Positions 7,650-28,610 of a stretch of 44,193 nt of DNA are shown in pieces (positions within the stretch are counted from its first letter, which is position 1; each line of letters begins with the position of its first letter). The DNA lies in IMG/VR virus record IMGVR_UViG_3300045988_058447, positions 1-44,193 of that record. One strand, given 5' to 3'. This DNA comes from a virus. Made by a program: the position numbers and the translations under genes. Below the pieces are notes generated by a model that was given only the letters and a program-made list of their open reading frames with translations, was not told where the DNA came from and did no database searches.

Positions 7650-8655
7650 CGTTTGCCATCTTACGATCTGCTAAAATGTCGTCACAGATGTAATATTTTT
7701 CCGTGACTGCTGTGTTTGCATGCCCCAGTCTGTGCGATACATATAAAATATCCTTTGTTCGGAGATATTCCCTAGATGCAAACGTCTTACGATAGACATG
7801 CACTGTGGCAACATTCCGGCATCCGGCACGCTCTGCGATCTCTTTCGCGATTTCTTCGATTGTTGCCTTACACAGCAGTTTCCCGGTTTCCACATTCCGG
7901 CTATTGAGGAATATATATCCTTCTTTTCTGCCATTTACATACTGTTCCAAGGCTACCCGACAATCCGGTGTCATAAAGCAAGTACGCCATTTACTGCTCT
8001 TTTCTCCGTAAATCTGGATTTCCCCACGTTCAAAGTCCAGATTTTCAATCTTAAGGTTACAGATCTCTCCCACACGAGGACCGGCACTAAGCATCAGTTC
8101 CAGAAGTGCTTTTTCACGCAAAGTCTTTAAGACGTTCTTGCATTTAGACACTTCATAATCAGATAAGCGTTTCTTGCGCTTCTGCGGGATTTTGATCTTG
8201 TCAATATCCCAGTATATGTCCTTGTCGATATGGTGTTTCCGGTACGCCCACTTGACAAATGCGGATAAACATTTCTGAATATTTCCGGCGTATGACTTCG
8301 AGATCTTGTCCCGATACTGCCTTATGGCAATATAATCCATTACGTCCTGTCCGGTCATAACGGCATAATGAAGTCCAGTTTCATTAAAGAATTTCTTTAA
8401 TGTGTACAGGTACATTTCAATCGTTTTCTCTTTCCTGCCGACTGCGATCAGATCAACGTGATATCTGCCGAGAATCCATTCATTATCCCTTACGTCCGTG
8501 GTTGGCAGCGTTTCGTCCGGCACCAAATGAAAACCTTTCATGCGATACGCAAGTGCTGTTTTCAAGCGTTCCGTCCCTTCGGCATCCAGATAACCAGTCA
8601 TGTCATATATAAGATCATTCACAAATTCTCCCTTTGTCATATAACTACCCTCCAA
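7642..8655 (-). CDS. Tyrosine recombinase (XerC/D / phage integrase family), second copy in the genome
   Basis: 337 aa with GPRVGEICNLK (Arg I), HVYRKTF (H-x-x-R) and LGHANTAVTEKYY (His...Tyr nucleophile). Confidence 0.8.
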   Translation of the reverse strand: MEGSYMTKGEFVNDLIYDMTGYLDAEGTERLKTALAYRMKGFHLVPDETLPTTDVRDNEWILGRYHVDLIAVGRKEKTIEMYLYTLKKFFNETGLHYAVMTGQDVMDYIAIRQYRDKISKSYAGNIQKCLSAFVKWAYRKHHIDKDIYWDIDKIKIPQKRKKRLSDYEVSKCKNVLKTLREKALLELMLSAGPRVGEICNLKIENLDFERGEIQIYGEKSSKWRTCFMTPDCRVALEQYVNGRKEGYIFLNSRNVETGKLLCKATIEEIAKEIAERAGCRNVATVHVYRKTFASREYLRTKDILYVSHRLGHANTAVTEKYYICDDILADRKMANVA

Positions 8656-8663
8656 TTCTAGTC

Positions 8664-8756
8664 TTTACTACAGTACGTGCGAGTGCTATAATGACAATAG
8701 GTTGAGAGTCTTAGCACTCATGAGCCGGGCATTGCAGTGTCCGGCTCTTATTTTTT
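8664..8756 (+). ncRNA. Candidate plus-strand small transcription unit (promoter + about 60-nt RNA + terminator)
   Basis: TTTACT (8664..8669) - 17 nt - TGcTATAAT (-10 at 8687..8692). Terminator GAGCCGG-12 nt-CCGGCTC + TTATTTTTT at 8722..8756. No plus-strand CDS is present. Confidence 0.3.
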
Positions 8757-8826
8757 AAAGAAAAGTGGCTGCACGAACCGCACCGGCCAGTATAATCTTT
8801 TAACGGTTTCGGCATATTTAACCTTC

Positions 8827-8854
8827 TACGCAAACCGGAGCTGTCCGGTCTGTT
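8827..8854. repeat. 28-bp exact direct repeat, copy A (tacgcaaaccggagctgtccggtctgtt)
   Basis: Identical to 9238..9265. Contains the palindrome ACCGGA-GCTG-TCCGGT. Confidence 0.95.
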
Positions 8855-9210
8855 TAAAACAAACATATCTGCTGTTCATCGTAGTAATATTTCTTTCTTA
8901 CCGGTACATACCCACCGTAAAATATCCTCTTAACACGATCTCTCTGTTTCAGATTCGCCATATAGAAGTTGTCAACCTCTGGAGGTACTGAAAAATAATA
9001 TTCTTCCGGATATGGCAGATGCTTTTCTATACAGATTTCTGCGATTTTTCTCTGATAATATAGGATATGATTCCGCGTCAGATTCATGTTGCAGCCATCC
9101 GGCCAGAACGGATCATTACACCCGTTCTGATTGATATTTTTCCATTGTTCTATTTCTCTGCAAATGCACTGGCAGTACTCTTTCACTTTATCTTCTGCTG
9201 TCTGGATCAT
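8854..9210 (-). CDS. Cys-rich hypothetical protein (118 aa)
   Basis: The internal start MIQTAEDKVKEY is preceded by a GGAGGTGA RBS. The longer ORF-track form would overlap the MTase 3' end. Confidence 0.55.
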   Translation of the reverse strand: MIQTAEDKVKEYCQCICREIEQWKNINQNGCNDPFWPDGCNMNLTRNHILYYQRKIAEICIEKHLPYPEEYYFSVPPEVDNFYMANLKQRDRVKRIFYGGYVPVRKKYYYDEQQICLF

Positions 9211-9236
9211 GGCATCACCTCCACAAAATTTAAGGT

Positions 9237-10943
9237 TTACGCAAACCGGAGCTGTCCGGTCTGTTCCTGCGCAATCCTCATGTTTCCTGTGCGCTTTGCT
9301 ACACACAATTCTGGCAAGTTTGCTTTCACAAGCGCGGCGGGGATTGGTGGACATACCGCATTGCCACATCTGCGCACCTGTTCGCTTCTCGGATACTTTT
9401 TCCCTGTATAATCATGGTCGATTATGTAATCATTCGGAAATCCCTGGCATCCGTACAACTCTTTCGGTTCTAACATTCTCAGCCCGATATCTACGATCTG
9501 GTAATCCACACCCTCGATTGTCACAAGTCCGAATCTGTCTTTGGTCGTAACCGTATCAAGTGGCTGCTCTATATCCTGTCCTGTGGCATCTCCATAGTAT
9601 TTAATCAAAAACGCTCTGACTTCCCCGAAATGCCCCGGTGATGTAGTAATGGTATGTAATGGTTCTCTCATATCCTGCCCGGTGCCGCTCTTATAAAATT
9701 TACTTAAAAACGATGTAACCAATCCGTATCGGTTCGAACCATCCACAGTCATGATCGGATCTTTAATCGTCTGTCCCCTGACTTCTCCCTGTGCTGTCTC
9801 GGAATGGTACTGGATCAGTGTTGGGCTGATAAGGCATTGTTGATTACCTGTGGTAATCGTATGTATCGGATCTTTGCAGTTTCCGCCCGGGTGATTTGTC
9901 GTATTTGTTCCCATATATGGTGCAAGCGTTGGTTCAATCAGGCAATGCTCATTTTTGCTCACAATCGTTGTCAGCGGTTCTCTTACATCCTTACTCCGAT
10001 CCTTTGTGAACCCGGTCTGCCCGATCTGCACCATATACGGCTCTACAATCCCGTATCCATGCTTTCCGGTTATGGTCGGCATCGGTTCCCGGATATCGTT
10101 CGGTCTGCGCTCGCCGCCGTGATTACACTGGATGATAAATGGTTCTGGATTGTCGAGTACAAACTTTTTCAAACCTCTTGCAATCCGATCCATTGTTTTC
10201 TTTGCCAGTGGGCGAACCGCCCGGATACCGTACTTTTCTTTGATTTCCTCGGATGTGTCAAAAATGCTCGGACATGGCCGGCTGAAATCAATCTGTGTGT
10301 ATGCTCCTACGTATGGTTTTAACAGTCCGGCTTTTACCGCTTCGCTATCCGCAGGGGCGTGTGTTGGCTCTGGCCAGACAATCGGTTTACCATCACATCG
10401 TGCGATCATGAAGAATCGTTTGCGCATGGTCGGCGCTCCATAATCGGCGGCAATCAGCTCACGGAACTCCACTTTATAGCCAAGGTCCCGAAGTTGCTGT
10501 ACGAACCGCTCAAATGTCTTACCCTGTTTGCTTTTAATCGGATGATGCCGTCTGTTTAATGGTCCCCATGTTTTGAACTCTTCCACGTTCTCCAACATGA
10601 TCACCCGTGGTCTTACAAGTCCAGCCCATCGTAATGCTACCCATGCAAGACCACGGATATTCTTATCCTTTGGCTTTCCACCCTTGGCTTTGGAAAAATG
10701 CTTACAGTCCGGGGAAAACCAGGCAAGTCCGACCGGATGCCCATTGCATGCCTTGACCGGATCAACCGCCCACACGTTTTCACAGTAGTGCTTTGTATTC
10801 GGATGGTTTGCCTTGTGCATCTTAATAGCTTCTGGATCGTGATTGATCGCAATATCAACGCTGTATCCAGTTGCTAACTCTATACCGGTGGAAGCACCAC
10901 CGCCACCGGCGAAATTGTCAACGATCAGTTCTCCGTTAATCAT
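9237..10943 (-). CDS. DNA (cytosine-5)-methyltransferase with an expanded, six-fold repeated target-recognition region
   Basis: Motif I DNFAGGGG, motif IV FSPDCKHFS, motif VI ENV, motif VIII TMRKRFF, motif IX RMLEPKELYGCQGFP, motif X GNAVCPP. Confidence 0.9.
   Translation of the reverse strand: MINGELIVDNFAGGGGASTGIELATGYSVDIAINHDPEAIKMHKANHPNTKHYCENVWAVDPVKACNGHPVGLAWFSPDCKHFSKAKGGKPKDKNIRGLAWVALRWAGLVRPRVIMLENVEEFKTWGPLNRRHHPIKSKQGKTFERFVQQLRDLGYKVEFRELIAADYGAPTMRKRFFMIARCDGKPIVWPEPTHAPADSEAVKAGLLKPYVGAYTQIDFSRPCPSIFDTSEEIKEKYGIRAVRPLAKKTMDRIARGLKKFVLDNPEPFIIQCNHGGERRPNDIREPMPTITGKHGYGIVEPYMVQIGQTGFTKDRSKDVREPLTTIVSKNEHCLIEPTLAPYMGTNTTNHPGGNCKDPIHTITTGNQQCLISPTLIQYHSETAQGEVRGQTIKDPIMTVDGSNRYGLVTSFLSKFYKSGTGQDMREPLHTITTSPGHFGEVRAFLIKYYGDATGQDIEQPLDTVTTKDRFGLVTIEGVDYQIVDIGLRMLEPKELYGCQGFPNDYIIDHDYTGKKYPRSEQVRRCGNAVCPPIPAALVKANLPELCVAKRTGNMRIAQEQTGQLRFA
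9238..9265. repeat. 28-bp exact direct repeat, copy B (3' end of the C5-MTase gene)
   Basis: Identical to 8827..8854. Confidence 0.95.
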
Positions 10944-13462
10944 GGCATCACCTCCGGCATAAAATCAAACAATGTTGGCTCGTCCACCTCATTTTCCGCC
11001 GCCTGCAGATATCCAACACCATCCCGGAAGTAATCCGGATTCAATTCACATCCCTTACCGTTCCGGTGCATCTTAACCGCCATCATTGGAACTGTCATAA
11101 GACCACCAAACGGATCATAGACCGTATCACCCTCATTGCTATATCTGTTGATGATTCTCTCCACGATATCCAACTGTAACGGGCATACGTGCATCTGAGC
11201 GCGTCTGCGGCTCTGCGTGGTATTAAGGGTACGCATCCGGTTGATATCATCCCATACTTCCAGCTGATTCCATGATCCCGGTGCAACAACCATAAATGTT
11301 GCCGGGAGCTTCCCGTCCTTGTCCAGATCTTCCGCAAGTTTCACATGATCCTCATAGTTATATACATTGCCGCGGCTGTACTCTCTGTACACTGTCTGTA
11401 AGCTATCAACCGGGAAATCTTTGAGCTCTTCCTTGCTGATCAGTCGGTCTCCTGACGATCTCCAATAACCATGTGCATCAATCTGCCACTGTGCCCGGGT
11501 GTAATCCTCTTTGGATTTCTTGACCGGAACATCTGCGTATGCCGTAGATCTGTCGGTTGGCAGTTTACGGAAAAGTAAGATATATTCCGGACATCCTACA
11601 CCCATCTTTGAACCATCCTTGCACTGTTCCGTCCATCCGAGGCGGTATGTCTGGTTATTCTCACGAACCACATCAGTCACGACCGTAATCATGCCGAAAT
11701 ACTGAAAACCATGCTTCATGTAATGTGCAATACAGAGTGCATGAAACGGCTCTATTGTAGGCATACCGGTTCCGGTTGCATTGCCAAATAATACACGGTC
11801 CTTAACATGGATTGCAGCCACACGCCCCGGCTTCAGGACTCGGAGCAGTTCTGGTGTGAGAAAATCCATCTGCTCAAAAAATCGGTCCGTATTCTGGTTA
11901 TGCCCGAAATCGTTATAATTTGCACTGTATTCGTAATGGTTGCCGAATGGAATCGAGGTATGTATAAGATCAATGCTGTTCGTTTCCATTGCTCGGGTTT
12001 CCTCTACGCAATCCCCATATACCGCTTCATAATGGTTTCCTCTCACTGTTCTCTCTTCTCTGCTGCCTTCCACGCCCATCTTCCTTTCTAACCGCTGTGT
12101 CTTATTTTCCGAGTTAAGACCATACTTCTTTACAATCTCGATCATCTTTGCAACCATGTGATTGTGATTCTTCCATTTTTCAAGCAATGCTTCCCTAATC
12201 TGTCGCTCGTTCTCCATGTAGATAATGTCGATCACAACCGGTTCTTTCTGTAAAAAGCGGTAACACCGGTGTACCGCCTGAATAAAATCGTTGAACTCAT
12301 AATCAATTCCAAGGAATATCTCCCGGTGACAATATCTCTGAAAATTACATCCGGATCCAGATAATGATTTCTTCGTAGCGAACAACTTTGTCTGTCCATT
12401 CGAGAAATCAATTACCCTCTGCTCGCGCAGGTCATAATCCATCGATCCGTAGATATCCACCACTTCCGGCAACGCTTTCTTGATCGCATGCCGTTCATTC
12501 TCCAGATCGTGCCACAACAAGAAATGATCGTCCGGCGATTCTTCCACAATCCTTTTCATTTCTGTTACACGGCGGTCAATGCTTTCTCTTTTAACTGCCG
12601 CAGCTTCTTTCAATCCCTCGGCAGCTTCCTGAAATAACTGCATCTGGCCGTCACGATCTGCAGTATCGCCATAATGCACCGGCAATTCATGCCATCTTAC
12701 TTCAAGCGGCGGCAGATCATATCCCTCATCGGAATATACCGGATTGAGATCTGAAGGCTTCGTGATAAAAAGCGCCCAGCTTGACACCCACATCCAAAAT
12801 TCATCTTCCATATTTGGATATAATGTCAGATTGTTTGCTTTTGTGCTGTCTCTCTGGAAGAACCGCGTCAATGCCTGCCCGGTATCCATCACTTCCAGAT
12901 ATCCGGCATAATGGATCAGCTCTTTGTATTTGTTTGGTGATGGTGTAGCCGTGGCTACCAGCTTATACGGAACGTTCTTGAATTTATCCAAGAATGTCTG
13001 ATAAGTCTTGCTTCCGAAACTCCTTAAAACACTGGCTTCATCCAAGGATGTCGCTGTGAAGTAGTCTGGTCGGATATCTCCATCCCGGACACGCTCATAA
13101 TTTGTCAATACGATCTGGCTTATGCTCTGCTCCACTTCTTCCATTGTTCGGCAATACTCCGGCTTTTCATATCCAAGCACTTCCACCGCGTCATGTGTGA
13201 ACTCCTGCTTCACTCCAAGCGGTAACACGATCAACGCACGTCCGCCGCTATACTCTGCCGCCAAGTGGCAGAATTCAATTTCCTGCACGGTCTTTCCAAG
13301 TCCGAAACTTTCAAACAGTGCACGTCTGCCACCTTTCAGCGCCCACACCACAGCATCCCTCTGGTGCGGTTTCAATACCTTGTTGACTTTTTCCGGATCC
13401 ACAACAAATCCGCTTTCTGTTGCAAGTTCAATCTTTGTTTCTAAAAATTCTTTATATGTCAT
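10940..13462 (-). CDS. SNF2/DEAD-like helicase fused to an N6/N4 DNA methyltransferase
   Basis: Helicase motifs: GLGKT (aa 54-58), DEAS (141-144), TATPSPN (171-177), QAVHRCYR (395-402). MTase motifs: DLIHTSIPF (aa 498-506) and HVCPLQLDIVERII..GDTVYDPFGGLMT (aa 758-790). Confidence 0.85.
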   Translation of the reverse strand: MTYKEFLETKIELATESGFVVDPEKVNKVLKPHQRDAVVWALKGGRRALFESFGLGKTVQEIEFCHLAAEYSGGRALIVLPLGVKQEFTHDAVEVLGYEKPEYCRTMEEVEQSISQIVLTNYERVRDGDIRPDYFTATSLDEASVLRSFGSKTYQTFLDKFKNVPYKLVATATPSPNKYKELIHYAGYLEVMDTGQALTRFFQRDSTKANNLTLYPNMEDEFWMWVSSWALFITKPSDLNPVYSDEGYDLPPLEVRWHELPVHYGDTADRDGQMQLFQEAAEGLKEAAAVKRESIDRRVTEMKRIVEESPDDHFLLWHDLENERHAIKKALPEVVDIYGSMDYDLREQRVIDFSNGQTKLFATKKSLSGSGCNFQRYCHREIFLGIDYEFNDFIQAVHRCYRFLQKEPVVIDIIYMENERQIREALLEKWKNHNHMVAKMIEIVKKYGLNSENKTQRLERKMGVEGSREERTVRGNHYEAVYGDCVEETRAMETNSIDLIHTSIPFGNHYEYSANYNDFGHNQNTDRFFEQMDFLTPELLRVLKPGRVAAIHVKDRVLFGNATGTGMPTIEPFHALCIAHYMKHGFQYFGMITVVTDVVRENNQTYRLGWTEQCKDGSKMGVGCPEYILLFRKLPTDRSTAYADVPVKKSKEDYTRAQWQIDAHGYWRSSGDRLISKEELKDFPVDSLQTVYREYSRGNVYNYEDHVKLAEDLDKDGKLPATFMVVAPGSWNQLEVWDDINRMRTLNTTQSRRRAQMHVCPLQLDIVERIINRYSNEGDTVYDPFGGLMTVPMMAVKMHRNGKGCELNPDYFRDGVGYLQAAENEVDEPTLFDFMPEVMP

Positions 13463-21023: not shown

Positions 21024-21653
21024 TCATTCCGCCTTCACAACAATTCCATACACCTTATACATCTGCCGGAACCGGATCACTCCCATCTGGTGAGCAATCG
21101 TATGGTGCTCCCTGCACAGGCAGATCTTCTTATAACCCGAATCATCCACCTTCCGGCGGTTATTTCCCATACCGATTGCATCTTCATGATGGATTTCCCC
21201 ATCCTTGCCGCAGATGGCACACTTTTTATGCATTAGGCAGTAATACAGATACCGCCCGATATCATCCGTCCGGTCAATCGCATTGTCTGAAAGCGGGATT
21301 CCCCACTCTAAAGCAAATTCCAAGATCGTATTGATAAACTCCCGCGCCGTATCCATAGAGCAATTGGAAAGACTGAAATCAGGATCTCCTGTACGGATCA
21401 TGTGCTCGTCCTTCAAAATTCTTTTCATCTGCTCCGACGGATATCCTGTCCAGTCTGCAATATCACGGATGGTTGCGTATGCTTTTTTTCGCTGTTCCGC
21501 AGATATGTGCCGCCCGTCATCAAACCGGATCTCTGCATTCTTGATCTTCTTTCTCTGGAGCAGCCCCCCAAGTTTCATTCCCGGAACAGAAACAACAAGA
21601 TCTGTTCCATCGCTGTTTTCCCGGTACTGCTTCACATCTACCATCGTATACAT
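21024..21653 (-). CDS. Putative HNH-like nuclease of the recombination module (HNHc_6-like)
   Basis: CAICGKDGEIHHEDAIGMG...CLCREHHTIAH. Lies adjacent to the SSAP gene. Confidence 0.45.
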   Translation of the reverse strand: MYTMVDVKQYRENSDGTDLVVSVPGMKLGGLLQRKKIKNAEIRFDDGRHISAEQRKKAYATIRDIADWTGYPSEQMKRILKDEHMIRTGDPDFSLSNCSMDTAREFINTILEFALEWGIPLSDNAIDRTDDIGRYLYYCLMHKKCAICGKDGEIHHEDAIGMGNNRRKVDDSGYKKICLCREHHTIAHQMGVIRFRQMYKVYGIVVKAE

Positions 21654-22273
21654 CAGTCATCACCATACTTCGATTTCAGACTGTTCAGCATTGTACCAAC
21701 ATCTTCTGCTGATAAACTGTCCCAAGTCTTTCCGTTGCTCGTGATCCAGTATTCAAGATTCACCTTATGTTTGAGGCACAGGTCTTTCAGGATCTTAATA
21801 TTTGCCGGGCTCGGCTTCTCCTCATTCCTCGGAATGATGTTGTTAAACGGCTGCATTTCTTCTTTGAGCCACAGGTTAAATCCAAGCCCCGTATGAATTG
21901 CCACACACTTTACAAAGGACCGGCACATACTGTTCCATACCCTCTGCTGGCTCATGGAATTATCCTTGACCGGATTGGAGCCATTCATCACCGGTGACTG
22001 CATTTCATACTCATTTTCATCAATAACGACATGTATCCGTGTCTCATAGCATCGGTTTGTATTTCCTTTGCTATCTGTGAAATCTTTTGAAACCATACGC
22101 AAAGAACTTCCCGTTCCCTCATCCGGAATCGGCACCCAGTAAACTTTCTTTGCACCATTCTCATGCAGCAAATCAATACATTTTGCCCAATTGAGATACG
22201 TCATTCCATCCCGTTCCTGGCAATATGGAGTTACGTCAATTTTGCGCATTTCTTCCCACGATTTAAGTGCCAT
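21653..22273 (-). CDS. Rad52-like single-strand annealing protein (Sak/DUF1071-type)
   Basis: GMTYLNWAKCIDLLHENGAKKVYW...SQQRVWNSMCRSFVKCVAIHTGLGFNLW. Confidence 0.55.
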   Translation of the reverse strand: MALKSWEEMRKIDVTPYCQERDGMTYLNWAKCIDLLHENGAKKVYWVPIPDEGTGSSLRMVSKDFTDSKGNTNRCYETRIHVVIDENEYEMQSPVMNGSNPVKDNSMSQQRVWNSMCRSFVKCVAIHTGLGFNLWLKEEMQPFNNIIPRNEEKPSPANIKILKDLCLKHKVNLEYWITSNGKTWDSLSAEDVGTMLNSLKSKYGDD

Positions 22274-24972: not shown

Positions 24973-25395
24973 ATGTATGAAATATTTGAAAAGCTATGCA
25001 AGGAAAAAGGCATAACACCGTATCGTTTTTGCAAAGATACTGGAATTAATTCATCTACAATAAGTACATGGAAAAATAAAGGTTCTGAATGCTCTGCAAA
25101 AACGGCAAAGGCAATATGCGAATACTTCAATGTAACAATGGACTATCTAATGACAGGGGGAACACAAATAGATGATCCTTATGCCATTACTGCATCGGAT
25201 GAAAGAGATATTGCCAAAGACATGGAAAATATGCGCAACAAATTATTAGATGAATCTGCTGGTCCACTATCCTATGACGGAGAACCGATACCAAAAGATG
25301 ATGCCGAGTTGCTGCTCGGACAAATAGAATTGATGATGCGCAAATTGAAACCGATCAATAAAGAAAAATATAATCCTAACAAAAACAAAAAGTAG
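24973..25395 (+). CDS. XRE-family repressor (CI-like)
   Basis: KLCKEKGITPYRFCKDTGINSSTISTWKNKGSECSAKTAKAICEYFNVTMDYLM. Confidence 0.8.
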   Translation: MYEIFEKLCKEKGITPYRFCKDTGINSSTISTWKNKGSECSAKTAKAICEYFNVTMDYLMTGGTQIDDPYAITASDERDIAKDMENMRNKLLDESAGPLSYDGEPIPKDDAELLLGQIELMMRKLKPINKEKYNPNKNKK

Positions 25396-27448: not shown

Positions 27449-27524
27449 AAGCATATTGTATCATTCGGAGCGCGATAAATCAACTACCGCGCTATTTTTG
27501 CGCCTATTTTTAGGAGGATACAAT

Positions 27525-28610
27525 ATGGCTAAAGCAAAAAAACTACCATCCGGCAAATGGAGAACACAGGTATACGACTACACAGAAGTTTTGCCAGACG
27601 GGAAAAAGAAAAAACATATGCGGTCTTTTACAGCCGATACAAAAAAAGAGTCTGAATACTTGGCATCACAGTTTGCCTTTACTAAAAAATCCACTCCAAC
27701 TACAGCTATGACGCTCATAGAAGGGATTGACAGGTACATAGAAACCTATTTAGAGGTATTATCTGCCACTACTATATCAGGATATAAAACCATCAAGGAT
27801 AACGCCTTTAAAACCGTTATGAATGTTCCGATCAGCAAAATAAACAGCGATATTATGCAACGTGCCATAAACGAAGAGTGTAAAAGAAAATCCGATTCCA
27901 GACGTTGCAAGGGAAAGCCTATCTCTTCCAAAACGGTAGTAAACGAATATGGTCTAATATCCACAGTGATAAAAAAATATTCCCCTGGAACCATATTGGA
28001 TGTAAAACTGCCAACCCCGGCAAAAGTTATACACGACATTTCATCACCGAATGTAATTTTCAACATGGTAAAAGGCACAGAGATTGAATTGCCAGTGTTG
28101 CTTGCAATGTGGTTAAGTTTCACACTGTCGGAAATAAAAGGATTAACCAAGTCCGGATCTATAAAAGGGGATTATATTTTTATAGATCAGGTTACCATTA
28201 CAGTTGATGGGAAAGAAATTGACAAAAAGATTGCAAAGAATGACGCTCGTAACAGAATGTTACTGATGCCGGAATACATTAAAGAACTGATTGACAAAGT
28301 GACTACTGACAGATTGGTTACTCTAAGCGCAAAGGCTGTAGCAAACCGGTTTACTTATATGCTTAAGAAGAATGGTCTACCTCATATGTCTTTCCACGAT
28401 TTGCGGCACGTGAACGCGTCAGTGATGGCAATGCTGAACGTTCCGGACAAATATGCAATGGAACGCGGCGGGTGGAAAACAGATAAGATCATGAAAGGAA
28501 CCTACATGCAGACGTATCGGGCAGAACGAATCGCCGTAGATCAAAAAATAGACGATTATTTCAATAACTTTATCGACAAAAGTTCACACGAAAGTTCACA
28601 CGAAAAATAA
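27525..28610 (+). CDS. int: Tyrosine integrase
   Basis: Starts MAKAKKLPSGKWRTQVYDY after an AGGAGG RBS. HDLRH...GGWKTDKIMKGTYMQTY. Last gene of the lysogeny module, next to attP. Confidence 0.85.
   Translation: MAKAKKLPSGKWRTQVYDYTEVLPDGKKKKHMRSFTADTKKESEYLASQFAFTKKSTPTTAMTLIEGIDRYIETYLEVLSATTISGYKTIKDNAFKTVMNVPISKINSDIMQRAINEECKRKSDSRRCKGKPISSKTVVNEYGLISTVIKKYSPGTILDVKLPTPAKVIHDISSPNVIFNMVKGTEIELPVLLAMWLSFTLSEIKGLTKSGSIKGDYIFIDQVTITVDGKEIDKKIAKNDARNRMLLMPEYIKELIDKVTTDRLVTLSAKAVANRFTYMLKKNGLPHMSFHDLRHVNASVMAMLNVPDKYAMERGGWKTDKIMKGTYMQTYRAERIAVDQKIDDYFNNFIDKSSHESSHEK
28578..28604. repeat. Arm-type repeat A: AAA + 2 x AGTTCACACGAA (inside the int 3' end)
   Basis: Exact 27-bp copy of 28782..28808. 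Confidence 0.9.

Follow-up and report, generated by a model that had tools for sequence, protein, structure and literature searches.

How is a perfect direct repeat beside a recombinase gene to be read? The question is raised by the viral genome IMGVR_UViG_3300045988_058447 of IMG/VR, of which the whole stretch of 44,193 nucleotides (nt), referred to as the window, was analyzed. In it, two copies of a 28-nt sequence (the 28-mer) bracket a single small open reading frame (ORF) of 118 codons, cas118, directly behind a gene for a C5 cytosine DNA methyltransferase (MTase) and close to a gene for an Xer-like tyrosine recombinase (rec). A first, sequence-only reading had seen an insertion with duplication of its target and had considered gene-cassette capture, a homing scar or a duplicated terminator. 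We arrive at a different explanation, to which we assign a probability of roughly 70%: the 28-mer is a boundary sequence formed by the tail of the MTase gene, and its duplication results from ordinary phage gene shuffling, with no dedicated recombinase-driven cassette system.

A pattern search of the whole window revealed exactly two perfect copies of the 28-mer, TACGCAAACCGGAGCTGTCCGGTCTGTT as read on the plus strand, at 8827-8854 and 9238-9265. No third match was present in the window at up to three mismatches, and 100 dinucleotide-preserving shuffles contained none, even with three mismatches allowed. All genes of the repeat region lie on the minus strand. In sense direction their order is p840, C5-MTase, cas118, sm34, rec, p88 and a gene for a LexA-type DNA-binding protein, with domains assigned by domain search. 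The features are the following:

10940..13462, minus strand: p840, a SNF2-type helicase fused to an N6/N4 DNA methylase; in relatives it precedes either the C5-MTase or cas118.
10939..10955, minus strand: 17-mer GGAGGTGATGCCATGAT, comprising the p840 end and the MTase start codon; exact repeat at 9206-9222 ahead of cas118.
9237..10943, minus strand: C5 cytosine DNA methyltransferase, 568 amino acids.
9238..9265, minus strand: 28-mer copy 2, the MTase end, encoding (E)QTGQLRFA and the stop and containing the ACCGGA-CAGC-TCCGGT hairpin.
9211..9237, minus strand: spacer of 27 nt with the ribosome-binding site GGAGGTG, reading TLNFVEVMP and stop in frame with the MTase stop.
8854..9210 (ATG at 9210), minus strand: cas118, an ORF of 118 amino acids.
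8827..8854, minus strand: 28-mer copy 1, a non-coding vestige of an MTase 3' end directly after the cas118 stop.
8711..8815, minus strand: sm34, a Cys-rich ORF of 34 amino acids right after 28-mer copy 1; the sm34-rec module is common to the empty-site relatives described below.
7642..8640, minus strand: rec, an Xer-like tyrosine recombinase with Phage_integrase and SAM_4 domains.
7649 to 7383, minus strand: p88, an ORF of 88 amino acids.

The copy at 9238-9265 consists of the final 26 coding nt of the MTase gene and 2 nt of its TAA stop codon, and the copy at 8827-8854 overlaps the cas118 stop codon (8856-8854) by that codon's last base. The 383 nt between them (8855-9237) are made up of the cas118 ORF and the spacer. 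Depending on the start codon, rec begins at 8655 (TTG) or 8640 (ATG), 172-187 nt away from the repeat. In these respects the sequence-only reading was accurate: it had described two perfect copies around one ribosome-binding site and one ORF, a 6-4-6 palindrome within the repeat and a recombinase at a distance of about 170 bp. Missing from it was a further exact direct repeat of 17 nt, ATCATGGCATCACCTCC at 9206-9222 and 10939-10955 (GGAGGTGATGCCATGAT in sense), which brackets the MTase gene in the same manner as the 28-mer brackets cas118.

Read in sense, the 28-mer is AA CAG ACC GGA CAG CTC CGG TTT GCG TA and encodes (E)QTGQLRFA followed by the stop; peptides ending a protein are given up to the stop codon in the following. 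The RNA is predicted to fold into a 9-bp stem (CAGACCGGA/UCCGGUUUG) that extends the palindrome and closes a 4-nt loop, with a free energy of -15.8 kcal/mol (z-score -3.2) in one context and -23.2 kcal/mol (z-score -5.6) in the other. Among related viral contigs, EQTGQLRFA is encoded by 22 of 22 distinct MTase 3' ends with near-invariant nucleotides. Among these ends are two MTase types that share just about 41% identity in the first 370 residues; the ends resemble the window far less right upstream of the tail and not at all directly past the stop codon. A wider, unbiased set was provided by 80 MTase homologues from bacterial genomes, with Roseburia, other Lachnospiraceae and, more distantly, Paenibacillus and Sporomusa as hosts. 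The ending GQL[RKCA]FA is kept in this set, the more distant ends being GQLQLSI, GQLEFSL and EQLSFAM, whereas at the nucleotide level the tail differs by 3-11 mismatches, at times with disruption of the hairpin. Since the peptide motif is kept while the nucleotides drift, the primary constraint lies on the protein tail. Judged by what it encodes, the 28-mer is the 3'-terminal segment of a phage C5-methyltransferase gene.

How, then, did such a segment come to stand behind cas118? The 27 nt that follow this gene match the MTase tail from its second base through the stop. Corresponding remnants are found behind other genes, namely about 40 nt encoding RIEQEQTGQLRFA and a stop after an HNH-type gene and a 56-amino-acid ORF (locus L026; relatives are cited by such numbers) and 27 nt after an unrelated ORF of 58 amino acids (L359). 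Across contexts their length ranges from 27 to about 130 nt. With a fixed 3' boundary and a variable 5' boundary they look like remnants of a gene's end, a pattern not expected of a defined recombinase site. The spacer ahead of cas118 can be understood in the same way. Its reading frame, TLNFVEVMP, keeps the ATGA stop/start overlap and is homologous to the 3' ends of genes preceding cas118 elsewhere (KLNFSEVLP, DFPEVMP) as well as to the p840 end FMPEVMP. On the strength of this homology, the spacer is the leftover 3' end of an N6-methylase-like gene.

The locus L026 also presents a second kind of insert bracketed by the 28-mer repeat. At 4784-5790 (sense), a NUMOD4/HNH-type ORF of 199 amino acids and the 56-amino-acid ORF, which is Cys-rich, lie between the MTase 28-mer and the longer vestige, the spacing being 977 nt.

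The nearest annotated phage is Roseburia phage Jekyll, in which the MTase gene terminates in 27 of the 28 nt and the beginning of a truncated cas118 (MIQTAEDEEKQ) comes next. A single exact 28-mer per contig is present in 33 IMG/VR contigs, joined to at least eight upstream and at least seven downstream sequence types, and its 23-nt core once each in 120 gut-metagenome stretches. In exact-pattern scans of these 33 viral and 120 metagenome loci no relative had two exact 28-mers. Second copies, all of them approximate, were confined to L026, L044/45, L192, L273, L308 and L359, and no locus with an array of more than two copies was found.

Loci anchored on p88, cas118 or rec served as samples that are unbiased with respect to the 28-mer. 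Besides the MTase and its site followed by various genes, they comprise exact empty sites in the order MTase, site, sm34, rec, p88 (L040, L043, L014, L019 and L022); the MTase with site and cas118 in the absence of a second site (24 of 80 cas118 loci); p840 followed by cas118 and site (15 of 80, loci with an uncaptured upstream gene included); p840 and cas118 with no site; p840 directly followed by an MTase remnant of 31-44 codons and the site (L059, L060, L062); and the tandem of MTase, site, cas118 and site (L044/45, L192, L273, L308). Because all these architectures occur, cas118 and the C5-MTase are alternative, sometimes joint, occupants of a slot after the N6-methylase gene. Each type of downstream module occurs behind both of them. 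The empty sites also bear on the expectation, voiced from the sequence alone, that recombination between the repeats would remove the cassette and leave the MTase intact, and that relatives lacking the cassette at this exact site should be sought. The geometry is right, and the five empty-site relatives carry a single 28-mer at that position.

The breakpoints of homology fall on the repeat. In the comparison with the empty site of L040, window positions 9700-9238 match L040 4347-4809 at 96.5% identity and 8854-8400 match 4782-5234 at 91.7%, the two matches overlapping on the single 28-mer. The metagenome contig L308, which has the same tandem as the window, is 97-100% identical to it from 9300 down to 8827; beyond this position, which is precisely the downstream end of 28-mer copy 1, homology is lost. 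This copy marks the limit of homology to L308-like phages on the right-hand side and to L040-like phages on the left-hand side. In L273, the same spacer and cas118 5' block stand behind the other MTase type, and homology starts at the 28-mer. The cas118 gene is itself a mosaic: together with the 28-mer and the spacer, codons 1-18 are 100% identical to L198, and codons 19-118 are 95% identical to L167, a locus of the p840-cas118-site type, and just 71% to L198.

These relationships suggest the following course of events. The 28-mer would be a short conserved island at a module boundary in temperate phages of Roseburia and other Lachnospiraceae, with differing genes upstream and differing accessory modules downstream. 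Long ago, cas118 would have displaced a C5-MTase after p840, the last 27 nt of the MTase staying behind the cas118 stop. The tandem of the window would accordingly be composed of p840, the MTase with its 28-mer, the 27-nt N6-methylase vestige, cas118 and the 28-mer; as it holds both occupants of the slot in tandem, both flanks of the slot, 28-mer and 17-mer, are duplicated. The window genome as a whole would be a recombinant with an L308-like left part (MTase, 28-mer, cas118, 28-mer, other module) and an L040-like right part (MTase, 28-mer, sm34, rec), the crossover between such parents having taken place inside the 28 nt of identity. We infer that the exchange proceeded via general or short-homology recombination, by the phage Sak annealing protein or host RecA, and not via a dedicated site-specific enzyme. 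Sak is the candidate catalyst of exchanges at short homologies; the role of Rad52-like recombinases in phage exchange is described in PMC3945230. The cassette would also be lost occasionally through recombination or slippage between the direct repeats. The Sak gene and further genes of the window are located as follows:

21653..22273, minus strand: Sak-family single-strand annealing protein (Rad52-like; PF06378, E 2.1e-7).
21024-21653: HNHc_6 nuclease gene, adjoining the Sak gene.
27456-28610: conventional integrase, near a CI-type repressor (24973-25395).

The Sak gene lies directly upstream of the HNHc_6 nuclease gene (21024-22273 together), and the pair is likely a phage recombination module.

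Features of this kind are familiar from the modular theory of phage evolution, in which mosaic "linker" or "boundary" sequences are exchanged by relaxed homologous recombination. With such boundaries the 28-mer has in common that a short conserved sequence at a gene boundary forms the shared joint of differing modules with many neighbours, that breakpoints lie at the ends of the conserved block, that 3'-end vestiges occur and that a Sak-family annealing protein is present. In contrast to them, the block is here just 28 nt long, encodes a C-terminal motif while also forming a hairpin, and is present twice, creating a deletable single-gene unit. We class the element as a phage mosaic boundary sequence and set it apart from integron cassettes, dif modules, transposons with target duplication and canonical terminators. 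The target duplication proposed in the sequence-only reading finds no place in this picture, as each copy belongs to its own widespread module, the MTase 3' end in one case and cas118 with the 27-nt vestige in the other.

We thus read the observed anatomy, distribution among relatives, empty sites and homology breakpoints as gene shuffling at an MTase-tail boundary. Several points weigh against this reading. A length of 28 nt is very short for efficient homologous exchange, and the use of so short a block by Sak or RecA is presumed. Sharp homology boundaries at the 28-mer ends would be expected equally from a site-specific system, and the sequences fit an insertion or a deletion as the original event alike. 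Furthermore, the non-coding copy after cas118 is conserved beyond the expectation for neutral decay. In 14 distinct cas118-site sequences, the most divergent pairs are 90% identical in the 27-mer compared to 53% at third and 80% at first and second codon positions of cas118. The substitutions in this copy alter the peptide in the MTase frame (L to F, R to W, T to A, A to V and one nonsense change), and all of them keep the hairpin, being located in the loop or outside the stem or representing G.U-compatible transitions. The 28-mer may therefore also have a cis-acting role that gene shuffling does not name. Alternatively, the non-coding copy may be renewed repeatedly by exchange with MTase-coding copies, since each downstream module type is found behind both the MTase and cas118.

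Next to gene shuffling, the explanation that survives best also has a cis-acting role at its core, but we consider it unlikely. According to it, the hairpin is a portable RNA or DNA element (mRNA 3' stabiliser, processing site, weak attenuator or protein-binding palindrome) that every gene occupying the slot keeps at its end, the window containing two functional copies of the signal. It would be compatible with gene shuffling as an added layer. The predicted fold is stable and clearly better than that of shuffled sequences, and the non-coding copy stands out at 90% identity, flanked on one side by coding sequence of about 70% identity and on the other by unrelated downstream DNA. Moreover, the same minimal 27 nt are kept after cas118 and after the unrelated 58-amino-acid ORF of L359. 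The five substitutions in non-coding copies point in the same direction, but the estimated chance of five out of five preserving the stem is about 0.05 and thus marginal, and repeated exchange with MTase-coding copies could equally maintain the conservation. Distant MTases with the same peptide (L098, L111, L150) carry synonymous changes that break the stem, and many cas118 loci are devoid of the element altogether. A Rho-independent terminator is not indicated either: the hairpin is followed by UUUGCGUA with no U-run and is absent from the calls of the terminator scan, which leaves the suggested duplicated terminator unsupported in its canonical form. Searches against Rfam gave nothing at gathering score across the whole window and chance-level matches only in 8500-9400.

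Far less probable is a dedicated recombination site, used by the Xer-like recombinase or another phage function for capturing, swapping and dropping single-gene cassettes at the end of the methylase gene. In its specific form, the adjoining recombinase captures gene cassettes in an integron-like or dif-module-like fashion, with the 28-mer as core site and cas118 plus one 28-mer as the mobile unit. The length of 28 bp with imperfect inverted arms would suit such a site, and an 11-6-11 reading, ACGCAAACCGG-AGCTGT-CCGGTCTGTT, is possible, in which about 7 of 10 positions match between the arms. In the window and about a dozen relatives rec is located some 170-190 nt from the site; exact empty sites exist, and homology boundaries coincide with the 28-mer ends. 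The occurrence of repeat and recombinase is, however, uncorrelated among relatives. The double-copy contigs L044/45, L192 and L026 are outside the 25 viral contigs with a close rec relative, L308 shows no rec within the fetched flank, and rec is missing at most 28-mer loci. Conversely, an intact rec is found with no 28-mer in L250-254, where a microhomology deletion removed it, in L260-265 (order SSB, rec, cas118, one further ORF, MTase), with no 28-mer within 2.5 kb, and likewise in L259 and L266. Because repeat and rec are independent of each other in both directions, we regard cassette capture by this recombinase as a very remote prospect, and rec is not considered part of the repeat mechanism. 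The 28-mer is, in addition, MTase coding sequence whose peptide is conserved far beyond this phage group, the vestige length differs between contexts, and arrays of more than two copies were not found at any locus.

The recombinase itself stays under all curated cut-offs for Xer proteins and integron integrases. In comparison with NCBIfam models, it reaches 63.1 bits for the integron integrase family TIGR02249 (cut-off 265) and 32.6 bits for NF011946 (cut-off 435). Among Xer families the best score is 157.8 bits for the XerA-type NF040815 (cut-off 220), followed by XerC (95), XerD (94) and XerS (67), these three far below their cut-offs. By these scores, rec is Xer-like but no orthologue of XerC, XerD, XerS, XerH or XerA. 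With integron cassettes (attC plus IntI) the locus shares a promoter-less ORF with a short imperfect palindrome, direct repeats, a nearby tyrosine recombinase and empty sites; it differs from them in that rec is no IntI, the element is 28 nt within coding sequence, arrays and attI/Pc are missing and the recombinase is uncorrelated with the repeat. An attC site spans about 57-141 bp, forms an imperfect inverted repeat with R''/L''-L'/R' boxes and recombines at a GTTRRRY core; the 28-mer junctions, GTTTAAA and GTTCCTG, do not match this core. Xer/dif modules (IMEX, pdif, difSL-xerS) are similar in the site length of 28 bp, the Xer-like recombinase and, as in difSL-xerS, the position of the recombinase gene beside the candidate site, but rec scores below the Xer cut-offs and persists where the 28-mer is absent, and vice versa. 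The 28-mer is presumably also unlike the dif consensus sequences. A transposon with target-site duplication (2-14 bp) does not agree with a repeat of 28 bp, no terminal inverted repeats reported inside it and a sole ORF that has no transposase domain.

Homing-type mobility, in which a nuclease would cut near the conserved MTase 3' end and repair would copy a neighbouring gene in with duplication of part of the target, is scarcely tenable. The NUMOD4/HNH-type ORF of L026, directly behind the MTase 28-mer and followed by the second, longer vestige, would fit. The cas118 protein, however, is helical and shows neither a nuclease domain nor a structural match, the HNHc_6 gene of the window lies 12 kb distant beside Sak, and the mosaic pattern is explained with no need for cleavage. 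Equally improbable is a +1 ribosomal frameshift at UUU-UAA/UGA, with tRNA-Phe re-pairing on U-UUU, that would add (K/E)QTGQLRFA to cas118: the vestige is in the +1 frame and open to the same-place stop where intact, a TGA stop gives exactly F-EQTGQLRFA (UUU-UGA-G) and most variation affects the Ala codon and which stop codon is used, but a stimulatory Shine-Dalgarno-like element is missing, vestiges of several lineages (L180/L273, L195, L189) are disrupted by a premature stop, the loss of 1 nt or a truncation, the majority of cas118 genes lack a vestige, and cas118 already ends in its own QxSLF motif.

The surroundings of rec contain further elements. A small-RNA-like gene is located at 8664-8755 on the plus strand, divergent from rec and antisense to the 3' end of sm34. 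Its promoter is TTTACT-17-TGcTATAAT; the 5' part carries a small hairpin, and the gene ends in a strong intrinsic terminator (GAGCCGGGCATTGCAGTGTCCGGCTC plus T-run), whose stem covaries with compensatory changes at 4 of 13 predicted pairs. The predicted transcript, of roughly 60 nt, covers 8699-8755. All genomic contexts of rec that were found (L247-L267) include this element, which gave no Rfam match. The small protein sm34 (MPKPLKDYTGRCGSCSHFSLKNKSRTLQCPAHEC) contains a CxxC motif; among the empty-site relatives its conservation is 100%, other relatives have a truncated version, and no family was found for it. Compared to window 8740-8856, L250-L254 and L039/L041/L042 show a deletion at a microhomology of a few nt (TAA/AG) that fuses the cas118 stop to a hairpin inside sm34 and takes out the 28-mer, most of sm34 and the T-run of the small-RNA terminator. 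A different element is represented by L260-L265 (for example L264 1955-5994) with the order ParB-like, SSB, rec, cas118 (ending in QLSLF), a 138-amino-acid ORF and C5-MTase. Here rec, cas118 and the MTase are again found together, in another arrangement with no 28-mer in the stretch.

For the cas118 protein, a helical structure with a disordered C-terminal tail ending in QQICLF is predicted (AlphaFold model, predicted local distance difference test score 69). A function could not be assigned from Pfam, PHROG or NCBIfam, where no match was obtained, and 450 of 450 homologue clusters are unnamed or merely hypothetical; the model matched no fold of the PDB at E≤0.001. The C-terminus of the family follows the consensus Q-[MIL]-[SC]-L-F, with Q114 invariant, L117 and F118 at least 90% conserved and QMSLF, QLSLF, QISLF and QICLF as endings. 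This resembles the motif QL(S/D)LF, by which bacterial proteins bind the beta sliding clamp via their C-termini (PMC9690074), and the ending QLSLF matches it exactly. Three nearby genes end in such clamp-motif-like C-termini: the MTase (9237-9265), cas118 (8857-8871) and p88 (7386-7406). The MTase tail QLRFA is only a partial fit to QL[SD]LF, differing at the last two positions; its relatives end in QLQLSI, QLEFSL and QLSFAM. p88 is a putative late regulator just upstream of the packaging genes. Its 3' end had at first appeared as another copy of the 28-mer (7387-7426, 72% identical) and was taken for a third site or for the distal boundary of an element carrying the recombinase. Every one of the 39 distinct p88 tails ends in GQ[LM][RK]MVW, as most do, or in a close variant, so that this likeness is one of a peptide motif and not a DNA repeat. 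The case of p88 parallels MuC, the clamp-dependent late activator of phage Mu (bioRxiv 10.1101/2025.01.04.631326), at the motif level only. From their sequences, these endings suggest that the three proteins may bind to the sliding clamp of the host.

The locus provides a base-resolved example of single-gene shuffling in temperate gut phages, in which the putative parents, the empty site and the recombinant are all identifiable. A 28-nt block, held constant by the functional protein tail that it encodes, is the sole homology shared between otherwise unrelated modules. A perfect direct repeat beside a recombinase gene is thus insufficient alone for reading a cassette system. Should the 28-mer after all be a dedicated recombination site, it would represent a minimal phage "integron" with a site that also encodes a clamp-binding tail. 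The by-products may outweigh the repeat itself: a phage C5-methyltransferase, the alternative occupant of its slot, cas118, and a putative late regulator all have clamp-motif-like ends.

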